Positions 2,274 to 44,437 of a stretch of 49,576 nucleotides of DNA are shown here, one piece after another. The DNA comes from Escherichia phage HK639, in the sequence record NC_016158.1; one strand, given 5' to 3'. Position numbers and translations under genes: made by a program. Under the pieces are notes generated by a model. That model made no database searches, had not been told where the DNA came from, and worked only from the letters and a program-made list of their open reading frames with translations. Position 1 is the stretch's first letter; each line of letters starts with the position of its first letter.

Positions 2274-3674
2274 ATGCCTGACATTTCAACACCCAATCTG
2301 GACTATGGGAACATGGTCGAGGCGTGGGATATCAACGATGCCCTGATGGGCGGCACGCTCTATATGCGACAGCTGGGCGAGCAATATCTACCGCGCTGGC
2401 CGAAAGAAGACAAAGAGGACTACAAAAAACGCCTCGCCGTGGCCACGCTTCTGCCAGCCTACGAAGAGACCATTAAGCAAAACATCGGGCGTGTATTTGC
2501 TGAGCCCATTAAGCTTGCCGAGAATGTGCCGGATCAGCTGCGAGAGTATGCGAAAAACTTCGACCTTGAGGGGACGCGCCTGGACGTATGGGCGCAGGCA
2601 TTCTTCGGTCTGGCGATGCAGTATGGCCTCTCCCACGCGCTGGTGGATTATCCCAGGGTGGACACCGAAAAGGTGAAAACCAAAGCGGAAGAGAAAGCTA
2701 CTGGCGCGCGCCCATACGTCACCATGCTCAATCCCCGGCAGGTGATCGGATGGAAGTCGAAAATGGTAGACGGCAAAGTGGTGCTGACCGAGCTGCGTAT
2801 CAAAGAGGTAGTTATCGAGGACGGCGACGACTTCGGGCAGACAAAGGTCGAGCAAATTCGTTATCTGACACCTGGAATGGTGCAAATCTACCGCAAGTCG
2901 AAAGGTATCGATGGGGCGGCGAACTGGGAGAAGTTCGACGAATGGACAACATCTCGTAAGGACATAACACTGGTGACGCTCTACACCAAGCGCACCGGGT
3001 TTATGTGTGGTTCACCTCCACTGCTCAATATGGCTCTGCTGAACATCAAGCACTGGCAGAGTCAAAGCGAGCAGGACAACATTCTGCATGTCGCCAGGGT
3101 GCCGTTGCTCACGGTGTTCGGTTTGGAAGAGGGGCAAGAGCTGATAATTGGCTCGTCTTCAGCTACGTCGTTCACTGATCGGCAAAAGCAGGGTCTGGAA
3201 TACGTCGAGCATACAGGCTCCTCCATCGGTGCTGGTAAAGAGTCGCTGGCAGAACTTGTGGAGCAGATGCGCCAGGCTGGTGCGAAGCTGCTGCGTACGG
3301 AAAACACCTCTACCAAATCGGTAGACCAGACCTCCGAAGAGAAAATGCAGGAGCAGTCACCGCTCTACACCATGGCTACCAGCCTTGAAGATGCGATCGA
3401 CAACATTCTGCAAATCATGGCCGAGTACATCGGCGAGAAAGATGGTGGCAACGTTGATGTTCGCACCGAGCTGGATGTTGAGTCGAAAGAATTCAACCCG
3501 CCTGCTGCACTGGCTATTCAGTCCCTGCGCCAGGGCGGTGACCTTCGCCGTATCGATGCGATTAAAGCCCTGCAAAAACTCAACCTGATTGATGCCGATG
3601 CGGATCCTGATACGGTGCTGAGCGAGTTGCTGGCCGAGTCTGCGTCGCTGAGTGAACCACCGCCGGGGGTGTGA
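2274..3674 (+). CDS. Portal protein
   Basis: 466 aa directly after TerL; size, position and acidic C-terminus typical of portals; family assignment from recall only. Confidence 0.7.
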   Translation: MPDISTPNLDYGNMVEAWDINDALMGGTLYMRQLGEQYLPRWPKEDKEDYKKRLAVATLLPAYEETIKQNIGRVFAEPIKLAENVPDQLREYAKNFDLEGTRLDVWAQAFFGLAMQYGLSHALVDYPRVDTEKVKTKAEEKATGARPYVTMLNPRQVIGWKSKMVDGKVVLTELRIKEVVIEDGDDFGQTKVEQIRYLTPGMVQIYRKSKGIDGAANWEKFDEWTTSRKDITLVTLYTKRTGFMCGSPPLLNMALLNIKHWQSQSEQDNILHVARVPLLTVFGLEEGQELIIGSSSATSFTDRQKQGLEYVEHTGSSIGAGKESLAELVEQMRQAGAKLLRTENTSTKSVDQTSEEKMQEQSPLYTMATSLEDAIDNILQIMAEYIGEKDGGNVDVRTELDVESKEFNPPAALAIQSLRQGGDLRRIDAIKALQKLNLIDADADPDTVLSELLAESASLSEPPPGV

Positions 3675-5773: not shown

Positions 5774-6910
5774 ATGTCTAATACTTTGACTGGCCTGATC
5801 CCGACCATTTATACGGCGCTTAACCGCGTTTCACGTGAGCAGGTAGGTTTTATCCCGGCAGTGGCTCGTAACGCTAAGGCCGATGCCGCGGCCAAAGACC
5901 AAACCGTGACCGCACCGGTAGCACCAAAAACCACCACCGTTGATATCACTCCGGCGGCAACCGCGCCAAACGACGGTGATCAGAACATTGGTACCGTGGA
6001 TGTCAAAATCACCAAATCAAAAATGGCTCCGGTCAAATGGAACGGTGAAGAACAGTTGGCGATGGGGCCATCAGGTAACTACGACGTTATCCTTGCCGAT
6101 CAGTTTTCTCAGGCCTTCCGCGCGCTGAGCAACGAAATGGACGCAGACCTGGCTGCGCTGTTCTACAAATCTTCCCGTGCAGTTGGTTCACCAAAAGAGA
6201 CGCCATTCAGCATTAAAGACGATCTGTCTGATGCAGCGCTGGCGCGTCAGATTTTAGTGGATAACGGTGCACCGACTACCGACATGCGCATGGTGCTGGG
6301 CGGCGAAGCGATGGCCTCAATTCGCGGAAAACAGTCGGTTCTGTTCAAAGCGAACGAAGCAGGTACCGATCAGCTTCTGCGTGAAGGTATTATTGGCCGC
6401 GTGATGGGCTTTAACCTTCACGAATCCGCCAACATCAAGCGCACAGCGAAAAGTACGGCGGCGGGCTATACGGTCAACGGCGCGAAGCAGGAAGGCGATA
6501 TCATCATCGCTATCTCCACAGGTACCGGTGGTATCGCAGCAGGCACTGCGGTTAAGTTCGATGGCGACTTTAACCAGTATCTGGTTGTGGCCTCTACGGC
6601 CTCAAGCATCACTATCGCAGCACCGGGACTGCGCCAGGATCTGGCAGACCAGACAGCTATTACCGTTGTGAGCGAATTCACACCAAACATGGCATTCGAC
6701 CGCAATGCTTTCCTGCTGGCGTGCCGCACCCCGGCAATGCCAAAAGGCGGAGACACCGCCGACGATGTGATGAATGTTACCGACCCGGTGTCAGGCATCA
6801 CCTTCCAGATCGCGCTCTATCGCCAGTACCGTCAGGTGCGTTACGAGGTTGGCGTGGCATGGGGTGTGGCATCTGTTCAGCCTGAACACTCCACCATCAT
6901 CATGGGTTAA
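5774..6910 (+). CDS. Major capsid protein (P22 coat-like)
   Basis: 378 aa after scaffold; N-terminus MSNTLTGLIPTIYTALNRVSREQVGFIPAV resembles the P22-coat family; strong SD (AAGGAA). Confidence 0.8.
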   Translation: MSNTLTGLIPTIYTALNRVSREQVGFIPAVARNAKADAAAKDQTVTAPVAPKTTTVDITPAATAPNDGDQNIGTVDVKITKSKMAPVKWNGEEQLAMGPSGNYDVILADQFSQAFRALSNEMDADLAALFYKSSRAVGSPKETPFSIKDDLSDAALARQILVDNGAPTTDMRMVLGGEAMASIRGKQSVLFKANEAGTDQLLREGIIGRVMGFNLHESANIKRTAKSTAAGYTVNGAKQEGDIIIAISTGTGGIAAGTAVKFDGDFNQYLVVASTASSITIAAPGLRQDLADQTAITVVSEFTPNMAFDRNAFLLACRTPAMPKGGDTADDVMNVTDPVSGITFQIALYRQYRQVRYEVGVAWGVASVQPEHSTIIMG

Positions 6911-11225: not shown

Positions 11226-11530
11226 GGCAGGTCGCCGCAGCGTTGTATACGCCGGGACCGACGCTTGCGGAGCTGAGCGCTTTTGGTTTAACGCCTGAAG
11301 ATGTTGAGGAAGAGGTGGGGATCCTGCCCTCGGTATGGGAGTCCTTCACCATCTTCTCTGCGCTGGCTACCCAGTGGCGCGTCGGCGGGAGCGGGGCGAC
11401 CGGCCTTGATTACAACGTTCTCCCCTGGATGTTCAAGTTACACGGGGTTGAGGATGCGGCGGCCTGCATGGCTGACCTTCAAATTATGGAAAGCGAGGCT
11501 CTCAAGGTAATGCATAAGGAGACGAAATAA
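10887..11530 (+). CDS. T: Tail assembly chaperone G-T fusion via programmed -1 frameshift
   Basis: The -1 frame stays open from the slip site to 11530 and reads ...EKKLRQVAAALYTPGPTLAELSAF..., matching track ORF 11243-11530. The stop overlaps the tape-measure start (TAATG). Confidence 0.75.
11216..11222 (+). promoter_or_regulatory. -1 ribosomal frameshift slippery heptamer A_AAA_AAC
   Basis: In-frame X_XXY_YYZ motif 1 codon before the G stop. Confidence 0.75.
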
Positions 11531-14500
11531 TGACAGACCAAATCGCCTCGATTACTTTGCGGGCCGATGTATCCGACCTGAAAACAGCCAGCAATGAACT
11601 GGATAGGCTCGGCGAGGCGGCGGCGGGCGCCGTAGATAAAGCGGATGATTTAAATAGCGTGTTTCGCGCTGGGGCCGATGCCGGCAAGCAGAGCGCAGCG
11701 GCTTTATGGGAGCAACAAAAATCCTTCAAGGGGCTGCTTGAAAGCATAGATCCAACTCTCGCAGCCTTAGGTAAGCTTGATGATCAGCAGCAAAAACTGC
11801 GGACAATTCATAGCAAGGGGTTACTCGATACTGAGGAGTTTACTCATTATCAAAAAATCCTGGACGACACCCGTCTCAAGCTGACCGACACTGGCGAAGC
11901 GGCGGCGCGTGCTCAGGCCGAATTAGCCGCTACCCAGGCGGCAGAGAAGCAGTCCACAGCGTTAAAGAACCTTCTTGGATCCATCGACCCGACTATCCGC
12001 GCGTTCAATTCATTGGATGAACAGCACGCACAGCTGGTGGCCCATTTCGAAGCTGGGCGCATTAACGGTGCTCAGTTCGAGCACTTCAACACAATCCTTA
12101 ACCAGACGCGTGAGCGCCTCTCTGGTGTCGCAGACGTACTACCAGAAGCGCTATCCCGGCAGGAAGCTGCTGCCCGGCGCGCTGGAATCTCCGTTGGTCA
12201 GTACAGCGCAGCAATGCGTACGCTTCCGGCTCAGTTCACGGATATCGCCACGCAGTTAGCTGGTGGGCAGTCGCCGTTCCTGATTCTGCTGCAACAGGGC
12301 GGGCAGATTAAAGACCAGTTTGGCTCGGTTCAGGGGGCGCTGTCCGGCGTCGGAGAATACATCCGCAGTATGGCTGGGATGATTAACCCAACCACGATCG
12401 CACTTGGTGGGCTGATTGGGACGATCGGCCTGCTGGCTGCCGCAGCGTATAACTCCTCGGAGCAATTTGACCAGGTGGCACGCTCTGTCATCATGATGGG
12501 TGGGGCTGGCTTCTCCTCAATGCAGCAGCTCAACCAGGCCGCTGAGGAAGTGGCTGGCAAGACGAATACATCGATCAGCTCCACCGTCGATACGCTGGTT
12601 ACGTTGAACGATACTGGCAAATATACCGCCAGCCAGATGAAACAGGTCGCAACGACCATCACCCTCATGGGTAAGGCCGGAAATGATACCAAAGCGGCAA
12701 TGGCCGACTTCGGAAAGATTGTCAGCGATCCGGTTAAAGGGCTGGCCAGCCTCAATGAGCAATATGGTTTCGTTGATGAGGCCATGATTAAGCACATCAT
12801 CCAGCTTCGTAAGCAGAAGGGTGAGCAGGCCGCTGTTACCGAAGCCATTAACCTGTTTGCTGGCGTCATGGAAAAACGCGCACAGGAGACTATTGAGGCA
12901 ACGGACAATATTGGCAAAGCATGGACTGGGCTAAAAGCATTCGCCTCTGACACTTTCGGCCAAATCGGAATTACTGTGCGGGCTTGGGGAAATCAGGTTA
13001 TCGAGGTGTTCAAGTTATTGAGCACTTCGTTTGAAGCCCTTTTCGTCAAGATGAAAGAGGTCTCCCTTGAAATTATGGGGGGGATGATCACCGGGTTCAC
13101 GGATATTGCTAACAAACTTCCGGGCGGGGAAACTCTCATCAAATCCATGGGGTTTGATGGGCTCGCTGAGAGCGTTGCCAAGAACAGAGAGGCAGCAAGC
13201 AAGGAATATACTCAGCTTACCGCTGAGTACAACAAGCACATTGCTAATCTCAGTAAATCCCAGTGGCAATGGGAGGAGGAAGCGAAGAATGGTCTTGGCG
13301 GGGGGGTAAAAGGCACAGGCTCAGTTGATCGGCAAACTAAGGATGCCGTTTCAAAGCTTGCTGAGGACTCAGCCAAAAAGACCAAAGAGGCGAAAGCCAC
13401 TCTGGAAGCTGGCGATCGCACCCTGGAGAACTACCGCGCCCAGGCCAGAACGTTAACCGAAACGCTCGAGACCCTCCGACAAACTGGCGAAACCCACGCT
13501 AAAAACACCGAGTTCAGTAAACAGCAATCTCGATTCGCTGAATTGGATGAGGCAGCCAAAACCCGCGCGCTGACTGCTCAGGAAAAATCTTTACTGTCGA
13601 GCCGTGAGGCGATTCTGAACGCCGCCAAGGTGGTTGATCAGAAGAACAAGGAAGTAGAGGCGCAGCAGAAGATTAACGGCCTGGCGCAGCAGGCGAATAA
13701 ATACGTCACGCAGATGTCGGAAAAAACCGATGCGTTGCGTGATAGTGCAGGCCTCAGCAGTCGGCAAACGCAGCGCATGATGGAAGAGGCGCAGCTTCGC
13801 CAGGGCTGGCTCAACGGTGGGGGTAAACTTGAGGATGCCGGGTATGAAAAAGAACTGGCGGCTCTCAGGAAATATTACGCCGAAGAGGACAAATTGCGGG
13901 GCGACTGGAAAGCGGGGGCTGTTGCTGGATGGAATGAATATCTGGACGCGGCCACGAACACTTACGACGCCGTTAAAAACGTTGCCAGTTCCACGCTGAC
14001 CGGCCTGAGCAACATGCTGACTGAGCTTATGACAACTGGCACCGCGTCAGTTAAAGAGTTCGGCAAGTCGATGCTCAAGATGATCCTCGAGATAACCAAC
14101 CAACTTATAGTGGCCTATACAGTACAGGCCGCGATGGGCTGGATAAGCGGTGGCAGCAAAGGCGGGAGCACACCAGGGGGATCTTACGCGAACGCTGCCG
14201 CTGGCCTAACTTTTAACGCTAAAGGCGGTGTTTATGATTCGCCCGGGCTCAGTAAGTACGTTAATGGGGTATACGACTCTCCCCAGTATTTTACTTTCCA
14301 GGGGGCGTCCAAGTTTGCGAAGGGCGGTGTATTCGCAGAGGCTGGTGCTGAAGCAATCATGCCACTTACTCGGGACTCCGCCGGACGGTTGGGCGTACGC
14401 GCCCAGGGCGGTGGCGGTATGGCTCCGGTTATTAATATCACCGTTAACGTTGATGCTGGTGGTTCGGTCACAACCCAAACATCCAGTTCCGGTGATGCTA

Positions 14501-14604
14501 TGGGCCGTGCCCTTGCTGATGAAATGCAGAACGCTGCGTTGCAGGTTATCCAGAAGCACCTTAAGCCTGGTGGCATGATTTACAACTTTAGCAAAGGTAG
14601 ATAG
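11530..14604 (+). CDS. H: Tape measure protein
   Basis: 1024 aa, long helical repeats, hydrophobic glycine-rich central segment, follows G/T. Confidence 0.9.
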   Translation: MTDQIASITLRADVSDLKTASNELDRLGEAAAGAVDKADDLNSVFRAGADAGKQSAAALWEQQKSFKGLLESIDPTLAALGKLDDQQQKLRTIHSKGLLDTEEFTHYQKILDDTRLKLTDTGEAAARAQAELAATQAAEKQSTALKNLLGSIDPTIRAFNSLDEQHAQLVAHFEAGRINGAQFEHFNTILNQTRERLSGVADVLPEALSRQEAAARRAGISVGQYSAAMRTLPAQFTDIATQLAGGQSPFLILLQQGGQIKDQFGSVQGALSGVGEYIRSMAGMINPTTIALGGLIGTIGLLAAAAYNSSEQFDQVARSVIMMGGAGFSSMQQLNQAAEEVAGKTNTSISSTVDTLVTLNDTGKYTASQMKQVATTITLMGKAGNDTKAAMADFGKIVSDPVKGLASLNEQYGFVDEAMIKHIIQLRKQKGEQAAVTEAINLFAGVMEKRAQETIEATDNIGKAWTGLKAFASDTFGQIGITVRAWGNQVIEVFKLLSTSFEALFVKMKEVSLEIMGGMITGFTDIANKLPGGETLIKSMGFDGLAESVAKNREAASKEYTQLTAEYNKHIANLSKSQWQWEEEAKNGLGGGVKGTGSVDRQTKDAVSKLAEDSAKKTKEAKATLEAGDRTLENYRAQARTLTETLETLRQTGETHAKNTEFSKQQSRFAELDEAAKTRALTAQEKSLLSSREAILNAAKVVDQKNKEVEAQQKINGLAQQANKYVTQMSEKTDALRDSAGLSSRQTQRMMEEAQLRQGWLNGGGKLEDAGYEKELAALRKYYAEEDKLRGDWKAGAVAGWNEYLDAATNTYDAVKNVASSTLTGLSNMLTELMTTGTASVKEFGKSMLKMILEITNQLIVAYTVQAAMGWISGGSKGGSTPGGSYANAAAGLTFNAKGGVYDSPGLSKYVNGVYDSPQYFTFQGASKFAKGGVFAEAGAEAIMPLTRDSAGRLGVRAQGGGGMAPVINITVNVDAGGSVTTQTSSSGDAMGRALADEMQNAALQVIQKHLKPGGMIYNFSKGR

Positions 14605-14680
14605 CCCTCTTCTGCGGGTTTTGCCTTTGTCTGAATGCTGTTAGGATTAGTCCGAGCTTTCACCGAAGGAAGATAGGGGC

Positions 14681-15094
14681 ATGCAGAAACTTATTTTGGT
14701 CATGGGCATCATCGCTTTGGTTGGATGTGCCACCAAGCCAATTTCAACTGAGCAGGCTAAGCCAGCGCCAGCGAAACAAATTCTTGATAACACTCTCTTT
14801 ACGAAAAAGGCTGGCACCGGGGAGGTTGTGATTAAACGTGATTCTGGTTATGTGGGGAGCGCTTGTTTGACGAGGGTTTATGTCGATGGGCGTGAAGTTG
14901 CCGATCTTGACCCTGAACAAAAAATCACAATCTACCCCACCTTGGGGGATCACATCTTCAGCGCGTGGCCAAAAGGAATGTGTGGTGGGGGTATGAGTGA
15001 ACAGGCAGGTAAAGTAATCGAAGGTAAGGTATTAACTTACAGGATAGGTTACGGCTCTGGTTCAGAATTTGGGATTTACCCAACCGCATTTTAA
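14681..15094 (+). CDS. Lipoprotein (moron)
   Basis: Signal peptide with lipobox LVG-C16; SD AAGGAAG; own terminator; inserted after the tape measure, where lambda has no gene. Confidence 0.75.
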   Translation: MQKLILVMGIIALVGCATKPISTEQAKPAPAKQILDNTLFTKKAGTGEVVIKRDSGYVGSACLTRVYVDGREVADLDPEQKITIYPTLGDHIFSAWPKGMCGGGMSEQAGKVIEGKVLTYRIGYGSGSEFGIYPTAF

Positions 15095-15130
15095 CCACTA
15101 ACCAAGACCTCCCGGGCCTATAGCCCAACA

Positions 15131-15155
15131 AGCCTCGCTGACGCGGGGCTTTTTT
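15131..15155 (+). terminator. Intrinsic terminator
   Basis: AGCCTCGC-TGAC-GCGGGGCT followed by TTTTT. Nested inside a longer inverted repeat AACCAAGACC...GGTCTTGTTGGTT. Confidence 0.75.
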
Positions 15156-15570
15156 GTCGGCGCAAGGCTCGGTCTTGTTGGTTAAAATCTGAGCGCCTCT
15201 TTCAGATGGGGCCAAATACTACAGCAATCTTTTGGTTGGTGCATTGCTATCTGGACACGGTTTTTGTGCAAAAAGTGCTATTGAGCAAGATTTTGACCGT
15301 TTGAAGCGAACCATAGGTTCAACCTATCTCCTGTGATCGTGACAATAGTTTACTATTACCTGAGGGGCATTTTCTGCGAAAATGCCTTTAACTTGCATAG
15401 TGGCCGCCTCTAAGTTCGTCGAACGTGAATGGATCTTGAGCGATACGCCCGTTGCTCAAAAATGACGAATGGTATTAAGATGAATAACAGAACATGAATT
15501 TTATAGGGCTGAAGAATCTTATCTTCGGCCTTTCTTGTCAGAGGTGCTCCAAGGAAACTGGGAGGACGTT

Positions 15571-16143
15571 ATGCCTAAGAATGAAAAAGATAAGCGAAAT
15601 ATGCCTTTTTTTGATGCCTTTAAGACTACTGCCGCTATTGGTTTGCTGATGCAGCAAACAGCCGCATTACATTGCTCTGAAGGCCCGCAGCCACATCCAT
15701 CGTTTTACACTCTTCAGGCAAGTGTGGCAGCGAACGCGCACATGATTAGCCCTGAGATGGAGGAGTCCCTCGAATTCATCAAGGGGCTGAAAGAGATGTT
15801 ACAGAAAGGTTACGTTCTCCTTTCTGATGCTCACTTAAATGAGCGTGACTATTATATTCGCAAGCTGGACCCTGCTCAAACGGATCTGGTTGAACTTCAG
15901 CTACGCGGACTTGAGGGTGGTTTGAAAAACGTCTTTAAGAATTGCTCTGAGGCGGACAAAGAACTTCTGAAACCGTATTTGATGACGATTGCTGAAGCCC
16001 GCTCAGCTTCTACAAAGTTGAATCATTTAATTGCCCAAATGACTAAAGCTGCTGACAATTTCACCAGCGAGATTGATATGGAAGGGCTGCGTTCACTGGC
16101 AAAATATGGCACAGAGACCTTTTTCTCTGGTCGTTTCCATTGA
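15571..16143 (+). CDS. Unknown 190-aa helical protein, candidate cognate antitoxin/partner of the YafO-like toxin
   Basis: ATG 15571 preceded by GGAGG (track TTG 15535 is less likely). Stop is 8 nt before the toxin start. I see no resemblance to YafN/Phd. Confidence 0.55.
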   Translation: MPKNEKDKRNMPFFDAFKTTAAIGLLMQQTAALHCSEGPQPHPSFYTLQASVAANAHMISPEMEESLEFIKGLKEMLQKGYVLLSDAHLNERDYYIRKLDPAQTDLVELQLRGLEGGLKNVFKNCSEADKELLKPYLMTIAEARSASTKLNHLIAQMTKAADNFTSEIDMEGLRSLAKYGTETFFSGRFH

Positions 16144-16151
16144 GGTGAAGG

Positions 16152-16589
16152 ATGCACGTAACTGTCACATATAATGTTAAAAGTTACGACTTCTTCTTTA
16201 AACCTATCTTCCTTGAGTTTCCGCACTTGAAACAATCATTACTTGATGATTTTTCAGCATATAAGGCCACTAATCAGCTACCCCACTACTTTGGAAGAGA
16301 TACTGATTATGCAAGGCCAGCAGATATTCAGGGTTCTGGCCTTATGCATATCCATTTAGGTTTGCATGAGAACAAACTGCTAACACCTCAAGGTAAGCAG
16401 ATAGACTCCAGTACGCCACAGTGGGATAGAACCTCAGATTCGGCTTTGCTATATGCTCAGAATCTATTTGATGAAAATCAATATTCTCTTATCGCTCTCT
16501 TCGACCCGTTAGCGCACAGTAAAGCTCAGAATTTTGACCGAATGAGACTATTGGCATCGTATGCTTTAGAGTTTAAGAATCAAATCTAA
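16152..16589 (+). CDS. YafO-family toxin (ribosome-dependent mRNA interferase family)
   Basis: By-eye alignment to recalled E. coli YafO in three blocks. DFSAYKATNQLPHYFGRDTDY matches DFISYKRDGVLPDIFGRDALY. MHIHLGLHEN matches AHIHLANEN. RTSDSALLYAQNLFDENQYSLIALFDPLAH matches RTNDEAHLVYCQGAFDEQAWLLIAILKPEPH. Confidence 0.75.
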   Translation: MHVTVTYNVKSYDFFFKPIFLEFPHLKQSLLDDFSAYKATNQLPHYFGRDTDYARPADIQGSGLMHIHLGLHENKLLTPQGKQIDSSTPQWDRTSDSALLYAQNLFDENQYSLIALFDPLAHSKAQNFDRMRLLASYALEFKNQI

Positions 16590-16613
16590 ACCCGCTTCGG
16601 CGGGTTTTTGTTT
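16589..16613 (+). terminator. Intrinsic terminator
   Basis: AACCCGC-TTCG-GCGGGTT followed by TTTGTTT. Confidence 0.7.
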
Positions 16614-16630
16614 AATACGCTACATCCAAG

Positions 16631-16653
16631 CCCGCCTTATGGCGGGTTTTTTT
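16631..16653 (+). terminator. Second tandem intrinsic terminator
   Basis: CCCGCC-TTAT-GGCGGG followed by TTTTTTT, 12 nt before the M start. Confidence 0.75.
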
Positions 16654-16664
16654 ATGGAGAAAAT

Positions 16665-17015
16665 ATGGCAGTTGAAACCTACGCCTGGCGCTCGCAACTC
16701 GGTGCAGGCGCGATTGAGTACAGCCAGACGGTGCGCGCGGCGCAGTTCGGCGATGGCTATGAGCAGGTGGCTGAGAATGGCATCAACTCCACAGCCATTC
16801 AGGTGCCGATGAAGCATACAGGAGCAGAGGCTGAGGTTGATGCAGTCCGTGATTTCCTCCTGGCTCATACCGTGAAGGCCTTCATCATCACGCCGCCGGG
16901 AGAAGAGAAGGGGCTTTACCGTGTAGTCGCAGATTCTGTGCGGAAAAATCAGATCAGCAGCAAATTCGCTGAGCTGACATTCACTATCAAACGGGCTTAT
17001 GGGGTGTATGCATAA
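16665..17015 (+). CDS. M: Minor tail protein M
   Basis: 116 aa from ATG 16665; FGDGYEQ motif as in lambda M (FGDGYSQ); precedes L. Confidence 0.8.
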   Translation: MAVETYAWRSQLGAGAIEYSQTVRAAQFGDGYEQVAENGINSTAIQVPMKHTGAEAEVDAVRDFLLAHTVKAFIITPPGEEKGLYRVVADSVRKNQISSKFAELTFTIKRAYGVYA

Positions 17016-33693: not shown

Positions 33694-33765
33694 TGGTGGA
33701 GTGCTCCGGATTCGAACCGAAGTTTTCATGGGTGATCAGTCCATGCAGGCCCAGCCACACCCCAC
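33694..33765 (-). ncRNA. tRNA-like element (canonical T-arm and ...CCA end, reduced D-arm, 9-nt anticodon-like loop)
   Basis: Minus strand reads GTGGGGTG-TGGCTGGGCCTG-CATGG-ACTGATCAC-CCATG-AAAAC-TTCGG-TTCGAAT-CCGGA-G-CACTCCAC-CA. An 8-bp closing stem is possible. It does not fit a standard cloverleaf. Confidence 0.4.
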
Positions 33766-44362: not shown

Positions 44363-44437
44363 GGGTCAGAAGCACAGCGGTTGTGCGTTCGGCTGTTAAC
44401 CGAATGGTCGAAGGTTCGAATCCTTCCTGTCCCGCCA
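44363..44437 (+). tRNA. tRNA-Asn (GUU)
   Basis: Hand-folded cloverleaf: acceptor GGGTCAG/CTGTCCC (one T-T mismatch), D-arm GCAC-AGCGGTT-GTGC, anticodon arm TTCGG-CTGTTAA-CCGAA, T-arm GAAGG-TTCGAAT-CCTTC, G-CCA. A at position 8 is unusual. Confidence 0.75.

Follow-up and report, generated by a model that had tools for sequence, protein, structure and literature searches.

A YafO-family toxin homolog and its conserved, unannotated upstream partner in a mobile cassette of Escherichia phage HK639

The toxin YafO of Escherichia coli K-12 is encoded in the dinB–yafN–yafO–yafP operon, where—as the original prediction for the locus described here had stated—it is preceded by the gene of its 97-residue antitoxin YafN. 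YafO represents a 1K-member family of the BECR fold with an antitoxin–toxin gene order (PMC11980606). For other modules of the RelE/ParE type—such as HigBA, the HigBA–SecB-like chaperone modules (toxin–antitoxin–chaperone, TAC), and the prophage-borne PfiT/PfiA—a role in phage defense is documented or proposed (PMC11980606). Here, we describe a locus of Escherichia phage HK639 (NC_016158.1), in which a gene for a 190-residue protein (ORF190; ORF, open reading frame) directly precedes a gene for a 145-residue homolog of YafO (ORF145) between the tape measure protein (TMP) gene and the minor tail protein gene gpM. The window, i.e., the whole stretch of 49,576 nucleotides that was analyzed, appears by its ORF map to be the complete genome of a lambdoid siphovirus or prophage with terminase, head and tail, integrase, immunity, replication, Q, and lysis genes. 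Lambdoid phages are known to carry morons, like bor and lom of phage lambda or the superinfection-exclusion gene gp15 of HK97, which resides inside the tail-gene block.

With YafN–YafO of K-12, the HK639 pair shares the PF13957 toxin, the FGRD/HxH/Y/H residues, the RelE-type fold, and the order of partner and toxin with a very short gap. On the other side, the HK639 partner is 190 residues long, predicted to be all-helical, and unrelated to the Phd/YefM-type YafN; it bears no detectable DNA-binding domain, and its family often carries signal-like N termini. The HK639 toxin is 13 residues longer than K-12 YafO and falls below the equivalog threshold of the latter, and the pair resides on prophages and plasmids instead of an SOS-regulated dinB operon. 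HigBA, TAC, and PfiT/PfiA likewise combine a RelE-fold toxin with a family-specific neutralizer and are carried by mobile elements; their antitoxins, however, are cytoplasmic and contain helix-turn-helix (HTH), ribbon-helix-helix (RHH), or Phd domains, none of which is detectable in ORF190. Like bor, lom, and HK97 gp15, the HK639 pair is an extra transcription unit of atypical GC content, equipped with a terminator and probably also a promoter of its own, positioned between conserved late genes and absent from relatives. In contrast to these morons, its cargo is a two-gene module resembling a toxin–antitoxin (TA) system and not a single membrane protein or lipoprotein gene, and it is also found outside tail operons and outside phages. 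In PHROGs, ORF190 and ORF145 are full-length members of phrog_8416 and phrog_1651, for which the database gives neither a function nor a link.

The assignment of ORF145 to YafO was originally made by eye through three sequence blocks (YK..LP..FGRD, HIHL, and RT.D.A.L.Y.Q..FDE..LIA..P..H), with a profile search suggested as a check. Both lines agree: ORF145 matches the Pfam family YafO_toxin (PF13957) with 73.8 bits at a cut-off of 25 (E 1.3e-20, profile positions 2–100 of 101), and its alignment to K-12 YafO (35% identity over 119 residues, E 1e-15) passes through the very same blocks. In a 15-sequence alignment spanning K-12 YafO and homologs from coliphages, Pseudomonas phages, and Klebsiella phage-plasmids, ORF145 keeps 14/14 invariant columns, including F34, P44, F47-G48-(R49)-D50, Y53, H66, H68, Y101, and H122. 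Its AlphaFold2 (AF2) model, calculated from 37 sequences with a predicted local distance difference test (pLDDT) of 92.3, displays the RelE-like α/β fold. The best PDB matches of this model are all toxins of the RelE/HigB/YoeB/YafQ type, with PfiT as a further structural neighbor; a sequence search of the PDB returned no YafO structure. Relative to E. coli-type homologs, the toxins of the clade to which the window belongs bear an insertion around residues 70–91. Judged by these comparisons, ORF145 is a YafO-family, RelE/BECR-fold toxin homolog of a distinct, slightly longer clade, and it is predicted to be an endoribonuclease.

The two genes are tightly arranged. ORF190 ends with TGA at 16141–16143 and ORF145 starts with ATG at 16152, leaving a gap of 8 nt, and the Shine–Dalgarno (SD) sequence of ORF145 overlaps that stop codon. 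ORF190 starts at ATG 15571, 5 nt behind a GGAGG SD sequence at 15561–15565, so that gap and ribosome binding site are found as first described. TTG 15535 was considered as an alternative start of ORF190 and rejected, because the homologs share the methionine of ATG 15571.

A survey of the genes preceding yafO homologs, which had been put forward as a further check, shows that this arrangement is shared by the YafO clade of ORF145. Scanning IMG/VR with a YafO alignment yielded 80 loci, 67 of them with enough upstream DNA. In 67/67, the toxin start is preceded at 3–18 nt, or at 48 nt in a single decayed copy, by the end of an ORF of 179–214 residues, and none of these loci has a YafN-sized upstream gene. 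All but one of 40 distinct viral partners match ORF190 in BLASTP, with identities from 100% down to about 25%. Likewise, in all 10 full-length loci retrieved from reference genomes of bacteria (Buttiauxella, Pluralibacter, Acerihabitans, Enterobacter, Serratia, three Pseudomonas, and Orbaceae), the toxin gene follows a member of the partner family (hmmsearch E 1e-76 to 6e-10); this count covers the long-form YafO clade, the only one reached by the alignment used to search the genome contigs, and not PF13957 as a whole. As examples, PhiR40_1 of E. coli, YMC11/02/R656 of Pseudomonas, and pJN2-26 of Klebsiella all bear a gene for 179–205 residues ahead of their YafO homolog; the PhiR40_1 partner is 29% identical to ORF190 (E 6e-15), and the partner of YMC11/02/R656 matches via the C-terminal 45 residues. 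The pair is also present in a chromosomal prophage of P. chlororaphis, in Citrobacter/Klebsiella phage-plasmids, and on a Klebsiella IncFIB plasmid, where it is flanked by copies of IS5 and IS3—a typical setting for addiction modules, which often sit on plasmids between insertion sequence (IS) elements. A partner homolog is encoded by 43 Klebsiella plasmids, and the E. coli-type pair is found in 52 of 5426 complete genomes, RefSeq labeling it "hypothetical protein" and "YafO family toxin". Over viral, genomic, and plasmid loci, the partner measures 175–214 residues and the gap 3–21 nt.

Among the loci examined, none had an intact toxin but no partner. In one viral locus (L035, IMGVR_UViG_2537562173_000011, about 6001–6402), the partner is intact, while the toxin has lost its N terminus and is mutated at the invariant F34 and the conserved Y111. 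Another locus (L108, Erwinia tasmaniensis, 3001–3171) retains only a C-terminal toxin fragment, residues 89–145, and no partner. As the pairing recurs in every related locus examined, it goes far beyond chance: in Enterobacterales, Pseudomonas, and Orbaceae, the prophage, phage-plasmid, and plasmid copies of this YafO clade are obligately preceded by a member of the partner family.

Partner and toxin have also diverged together. For 44 distinct pairs, the distance matrices correlate with a Mantel r of 0.92, which is reached by 0 of 2000 permutations. With a mean divergence of 0.67 versus 0.48, the partner evolves faster than the toxin; antitoxins usually do so as well. ORF190 and ORF145 might in principle be unrelated cargo that merely came to lie side by side, considering that an unrelated lipoprotein gene lies in the same island and that the TMP–gpM junction collects diverse cargo in related prophages. 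Yet, the pairing is kept in every locus examined, over three groups of hosts and four kinds of site, with fixed short gaps and the said co-divergence, and the lipoprotein gene does not travel with it. Hence, the comparative data effectively refute mere adjacency, which we regard as highly improbable.

ORF190 itself was originally described as an unrecognizable, all-helical protein unlike YafN or any antitoxin family. It has no match in Pfam, NCBIfam, PADLOC, or the PDB; BLASTP does not align it with YafN even at E ≤ 100, and the antitoxin profile PF02604 does not match it either. No HTH, RHH, AbrB, or Phd domain is detectable, and a short motif shared between the C terminus of YafN and the tail of the partner was sought with nothing convincing found. 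The AF2 model (35 sequences, pLDDT 78, about 90 in the core) is all-helical with helices at residues 16–32, 45–56, 61–85, 89–99, 101–124, 127–158, and 170–186 and a low-confidence stretch at 37–56. From sequence and model, ORF190 can be divided into a moderately hydrophobic N-terminal helix (11–35), a hypervariable disordered linker (36–62), a helical bundle (63–165), and a conserved C-terminal helix with the tail ...SGRFH. Conservation within the window clade is highest at 11–35 (entropy 0.68 bits), 101–125 (ELQLRGLEG), and 166–190, the last of which ends in an invariant ...S-x-x-F-H-COOH. Across all partner clades, S166, R144, L176, A177, and the terminal FH recur.

The partner is nevertheless not as isolated as first thought: although outside any described antitoxin family, it belongs to the conserved family phrog_8416. 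An exhaustive profile search of 1.84e9 representatives (clusters at 50% identity) returned 35 clusters of this family, nearly all single-domain proteins of 170–205 residues, and 74/74 matches in a search of 5.8 billion proteins are nameless or called "hypothetical protein", none with a Pfam domain. In INPHARED phages, tblastn with ORF190 gave no match. By these searches, the partner represents a small, conserved, and unannotated family. In keeping with this, Pseudomonas prophage surveys list such YafO genes as toxins without antitoxin (PMC10449497), a study of Salmonella prophages guessed the unrelated YdaS to be the YafO partner (PMC9836087), and among the YafO partner clusters of a survey across E. 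coli, only 8% were reported as known antitoxins, with no description of the partners (PMC10790755). A literature search for YafO together with NetFlax gave no match, and the pair might still be listed in an earlier large TA network. The sole public record found that calls the family an antitoxin is PhiR40_1 (PV340560.1, 222–761), whose depositors labeled the partner homolog "YafM antitoxin". In the literature searched, no paper explains this label, which is probably a pipeline or naming slip; E. coli yafM we take to be an unrelated gene.

What, then, does the partner do? The ORF190 family might be a novel class of YafO partners that serve the toxin as antitoxin or immunity protein. We give this reading an even chance, and it is favored by gene order and coupling, obligate co-occurrence, co-divergence and the faster evolution of the partner, plasmid carriage, the lack of a lone intact toxin, and the decayed toxin next to an intact partner in the viral locus described above. 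The bicistronic arrangement with an upstream partner, a short gap, and conserved co-occurrence is that of type II TA systems; the DNA-binding domain by which a type II antitoxin autoregulates its operon is not detectable in ORF190. From sequence comparison, we infer binding of ORF190 to ORF145, neutralization, toxicity, promoter function, and the biological role.

Several observations weigh against a neutralizing partner. ORF145 reaches only 66.5 bits with the NCBIfam equivalog model of K-12 YafO (NF007377, cut-off 153), which leaves room for an activity and a target other than those of K-12 YafO. Many partners also look as if they were exported, and once exported, a protein would be unable to sequester a toxin that stays in the cytoplasm. 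To assess this, a strict tripartite test was used, asking for an n-region of net positive charge, at least 12 uncharged residues in a row that include a 9-residue window of mean Kyte–Doolittle (KD) hydropathy ≥ 2.0, and a small-x-small site; an earlier, looser heuristic proved nonspecific, calling 18% of background ORFs "strong". Of 542 background ORFs, 2.8% pass the strict test; among the 24 partner clades, 15 contain one or more passing members, and in the Pseudomonas clade, 21 of 23 sequences pass. The PROSITE lipoprotein rule (PS51257) is fulfilled by 23 of 147 family members, 19 of the 23 Pseudomonas sequences among them (...LSLALSVSTS-C24), compared with 0/75 toxins and 10/542 background ORFs; the lipoprotein of the window, as positive control, passes it. 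Searching the literature for a precedent of an exported or membrane-bound antitoxin returned none. With signal-like N termini in 15 of 24 clades, a classical cytoplasmic antitoxin is not assured. The original proposal of a new class of YafO antitoxin is supported as to a partner from no described antitoxin family, the antitoxin role itself being putative. Most clades bear signal- or lipobox-like N termini, which would not be expected of a type II antitoxin in the cytoplasm.

These N-terminal segments differ in sequence between divergent clades but keep their property, as signal peptides do: a cationic n-region, an uncharged hydrophobic run of 10–20 residues, a P/G breaker, and a small-x-A site. 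Examples with cleavage-like sites are MKTTLSICAAALSMALSSPNVLA (site before R), MSNLNLKAIAALCCALSSPVTLA (before Q), and MKMNPLLKHCFAAILSGGILSVPSYSLA (before D). A cysteine right after the hydrophobic segment—C35 in ORF190—is conserved in 90% or more of the window clade; its equivalent recurs in several other clades (FSC, TSC, MGC, IGC), where in Pseudomonas it is the lipobox cysteine. Counting even and odd cysteine numbers in the putative mature domains by eye gave a mixed and uninformative picture.

The partner might thus be an exported, lipid-anchored, or signal-anchored envelope protein, such that the cassette would couple an envelope component to a cytoplasmic RelE-fold RNase. It could then be a superinfection-exclusion factor, a sensor, a protein removed from the cytoplasm by export, or an "export-labile" antitoxin that neutralizes as its pre-export precursor. 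Beyond the shared signal property, the frequency of passing clades over background, and the lipobox in nearly the whole Pseudomonas clade, this is backed by the absence of a DNA-binding domain and by the overall architecture—a hydrophobic N-terminal segment, often a cysteine, a variable disordered linker, and a folded domain—which resembles lipoproteins and tethered periplasmic proteins. However, the signal tests are heuristics built for this analysis and not trained predictors such as SignalP, and ORF190 stays below their thresholds: its KD10 of 1.28 equals the background median, its h-region TTAAIGLLM is broken by QQ before TAAL, its best 9-residue hydrophobic window is too weak for the strict test, and the histidine in front of C35 (...AALH-C35) violates the lipobox rule; in the window clade, position −1 (H, P, or Y) is not lipobox-like. 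Residues 11–35 are moreover the most conserved of the clade, unlike an ordinary signal peptide. A cationic n-region is missing from the E. coli-type clade (0/12 pass), and the Klebsiella/Citrobacter phage-plasmid clade has no hydrophobic N terminus at all (0/21 pass); the latter keeps the same pairing, and its partner must act in the cytoplasm for want of such an N terminus. Finally, were the partner wholly periplasmic, its strict co-inheritance with a toxin of the cytoplasm would lack an explanation, and no candidate for the restraint of that toxin would be left. Taken together, an envelope protein is the less likely reading but a substantial rival. That the family is truly exported or membrane-tethered—as a lipoprotein in Pseudomonas and by a Sec signal or signal anchor elsewhere—and that YafO control depends on this localization is more doubtful still. 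If true, antitoxin lability would be achieved through secretion instead of proteolysis, or an envelope sensor or exclusion factor would be locked to an abortive-infection RNase; such export-dependent control would be a TA or defense architecture without described precedent.

Alternatively, ORF145 might be a YafO-like RNase that does not poison its own cell—a transcript regulator or an enzyme in need of activation—with ORF190 as an accessory protein, activator, or specificity factor. The low equivalog score with 35% identity to K-12 YafO and the insertion at residues 70–91 point in this direction, as do the lack of a match to any known defense-system model and the Kosakonia copy between Q and holin, for which late lytic expression is also expected. 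On the contrary, ORF145 keeps all family-invariant residues and the fold of active RelE-type toxins, its plasmid copies lie between IS elements like typical addiction modules, and an intact toxin is never seen partnerless. We consider this improbable, and a neutralizing partner remains the preferred explanation.

The pair does not occur at one site only. In Enterobacter prophages, it is found at the TMP–gpM junction as well, but beside an Arc/antirepressor module and not a lipoprotein gene; in Kosakonia, it lies between antiterminator Q and holin; and in E. coli PhiR40_1, it lies at the prophage end. DNA homology to the Kosakonia copy begins near 15268, and the gpM homology of the E. coli prophage relatives resumes at 16632–16644, which delimits a unit of about 1.4 kb (about 15268–16650). 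This unit is a self-contained, horizontally mobile two-gene cassette that HK639 carries as a moron. The "tail-operon moron" of the original prediction holds in that GC content, terminators, and leader are those of a self-contained moron, whereas the tail-operon site is specific to the HK639 lineage and is replaced elsewhere by the Q–holin region, a prophage end, or plasmids. Directly upstream of the cassette, an Arc-like repressor and an antirepressor, resembling immI of P22, are encoded in Enterobacter (locus L004, 6043–7539) and in P. chlororaphis (locus L094, 2761–4579); their adjacency in two prophages may reflect chance or a common preference for the place of insertion.

Part of this unit is a noncoding leader, whose elements are listed in Table 1 together with the neighboring features. 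In the Enterobacter and Kosakonia copies, the cassette is accompanied by the roughly 180 bp that precede the promoter-like block. This stretch is missing from two other copies (L015 and L026); it contains a 9-bp hairpin (15366–15374 pairing with 15378–15386) and shows no Rfam match and no conserved ORF. Over 15050–16700, Rfam gave terminator-like matches only, all below threshold. The promoter-like block is invariant in 6 cassettes with proteins of 52–94% identity and near-invariant in further copies, even where the cassette proteins share only about 50–70% identity. It is a putative promoter, although a consensus promoter scan skipped it for its 15-nt spacer. That scan returned 2 promoter-like matches, below the shuffle expectation of 3.0; an antisense site within ORF190 (15879–15851, − strand) was rejected on this ground and because it overlaps codons that are variable among homologs. 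In hairpin P1, 4/8 pairs show compensatory double changes across 11 cassettes, and together with its U-rich tract P1 is a candidate attenuator or stabilizer. The 6 pairs of P2 are all invariant, hence covariation speaks neither for nor against this hairpin. Block, P1, and P2 together suggest attenuation or translational control in place of the usual antitoxin-mediated repression.

Table 1. Positions of the cassette and its neighboring features in the HK639 window
Feature	Position	Strand	Evidence or remark
Tape measure protein (TMP) gene	11530–14604	+	ORF map
Terminator-like hairpin after the TMP gene, left island edge	14603–14620	+	
Lipoprotein gene, 137 residues, lipobox LVGC	14681–15094	+	phrog_890 "lipoprotein", E 2.4e-48; meets PROSITE PS51257 rule
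Terminator-like hairpin after the lipoprotein gene	15130–15151	+	9 bp and T-run
Noncoding upstream DNA, travels with the cassette	15268–15451	+	DNA alignment of window, Enterobacter (TMP–gpM), and Kosakonia (Q–holin) copies
Promoter-like block, TTGCTC-15 nt-TGgTATTAA (extended −10 type), 27 nt	15452–15478	+	DNA alignment
Leader hairpin P1 and U-rich tract	15508–15537	+	15508–15515 pairs with 15522–15529; RNAalifold on 11 cassettes
Leader hairpin P2	15544–15567	+	GTGCTCC pairs with GGAGGAC, sequestering the ORF190 SD; consensus structure
ORF190, partner	15571–16143	+	phrog_8416, E 7.6e-87
ORF145, YafO-family toxin homolog	16152–16589	+	PF13957; phrog_1651, E 2.1e-43
Terminator-like hairpin, first of tandem closing the cassette	16588–16607	+	Readable on the − strand too
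Terminator-like hairpin, second of tandem closing the cassette	16628–16649	+	
Minor tail protein gene gpM, tail operon resumes, outside the cassette	16668–17015	+	PF05939, E 5.7e-20

The surroundings of the cassette likewise agree with the first description, which placed an AT-rich island with a lipoprotein gene and four terminators between the tape measure gene and gene M. The island of about 2 kb holds three genes, all on the + strand, and its GC content is 0.41–0.47 across 15000–16600 compared with 0.50–0.58 in the flanks. Each of the four + strand terminator-like hairpins is located at a gene end; the raw count of such hairpins (5 versus 2.4 ± 1.7 in shuffles) is not significant alone. All descriptive statements of the original prediction are thereby confirmed. 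In addition to deviating GC content and terminators on both sides, the moron hallmarks of the cassette comprise the conserved promoter-like block, with presumed promoter activity, and the other cargo that E. coli relatives hold at the same junction. Megablast of the island against phages gave no match.

The lipoprotein gene is absent from the Enterobacter and Kosakonia copies and is a separate moron with its own terminator that adjoins the cassette without being part of it; a receptor-blocking or exclusion role is one possibility for its product. Among the defense models of PADLOC-DB 2.0, 0 families matched ORF190, ORF145, or the lipoprotein at E ≤ 1. In lambda, H is directly followed by M with no cargo in between. 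Relatives carry a single gene for a hypothetical protein of 128 residues, four small genes, or the Arc/antirepressor module with the YafO cassette at this position. Since E. coli prophages with 87–93% identical gpM–L genes hold quite different cargo there, the TMP–gpM junction is a variable cargo hotspot in the HK639 lineage. Elsewhere in the window, two phage-borne tRNA genes are found: tRNA-Ile (GAT) at 33694–33763 (−) and tRNA-Asn (GTT) at 44363–44437 (+).

With ORF190 as the neutralizer, the cassette might work as follows. ORF145 would be a YafO-family, RelE-fold mRNA endoribonuclease and ORF190 its cognate, co-inherited partner, the two being translationally coupled via the 8-nt gap. ORF190 would neutralize the toxin post-translationally by direct binding—with the helical bundle as contact surface, and/or the conserved tail at the C terminus (...SGRFH-COOH) together with the N-terminal helix—and represent a class of antitoxin or immunity protein that is neither YafN-like nor DNA-binding. 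Transcription would run from the promoter-like block of the cassette through the structured leader to the tandem terminators, and this own block and these terminators are proposed to allow for expression from the repressed prophage. Such a partner would lack the usual DNA-binding domain, and regulation might have moved to the structured leader. For the carrier element, the likely pay-off is addiction and/or abortive-infection defense, whereby the moron context makes a defense role plausible.

YafO is a classic E. coli toxin, which has been studied only in its chromosomal, YafN-paired form. Our comparison indicates that its homologs on mobile elements of Enterobacterales and Pseudomonas—prophages, phage-plasmids, and large plasmids—use a different and unannotated partner. 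Hereby, the toxin is known, the cassette and the family of the partner have no earlier description, and a possible export signal on the partner would be unusual. Mobile YafO genes are currently annotated without a recognized antitoxin, and naming the partner family would fix many of these annotations. With about 1.4 kb, the cassette is compact and lends itself to tests of phage defense or addiction. If the signal-like N terminus is functional, this pair would provide a route to asking whether the control of a toxin can be coupled to protein export or to the cell envelope.

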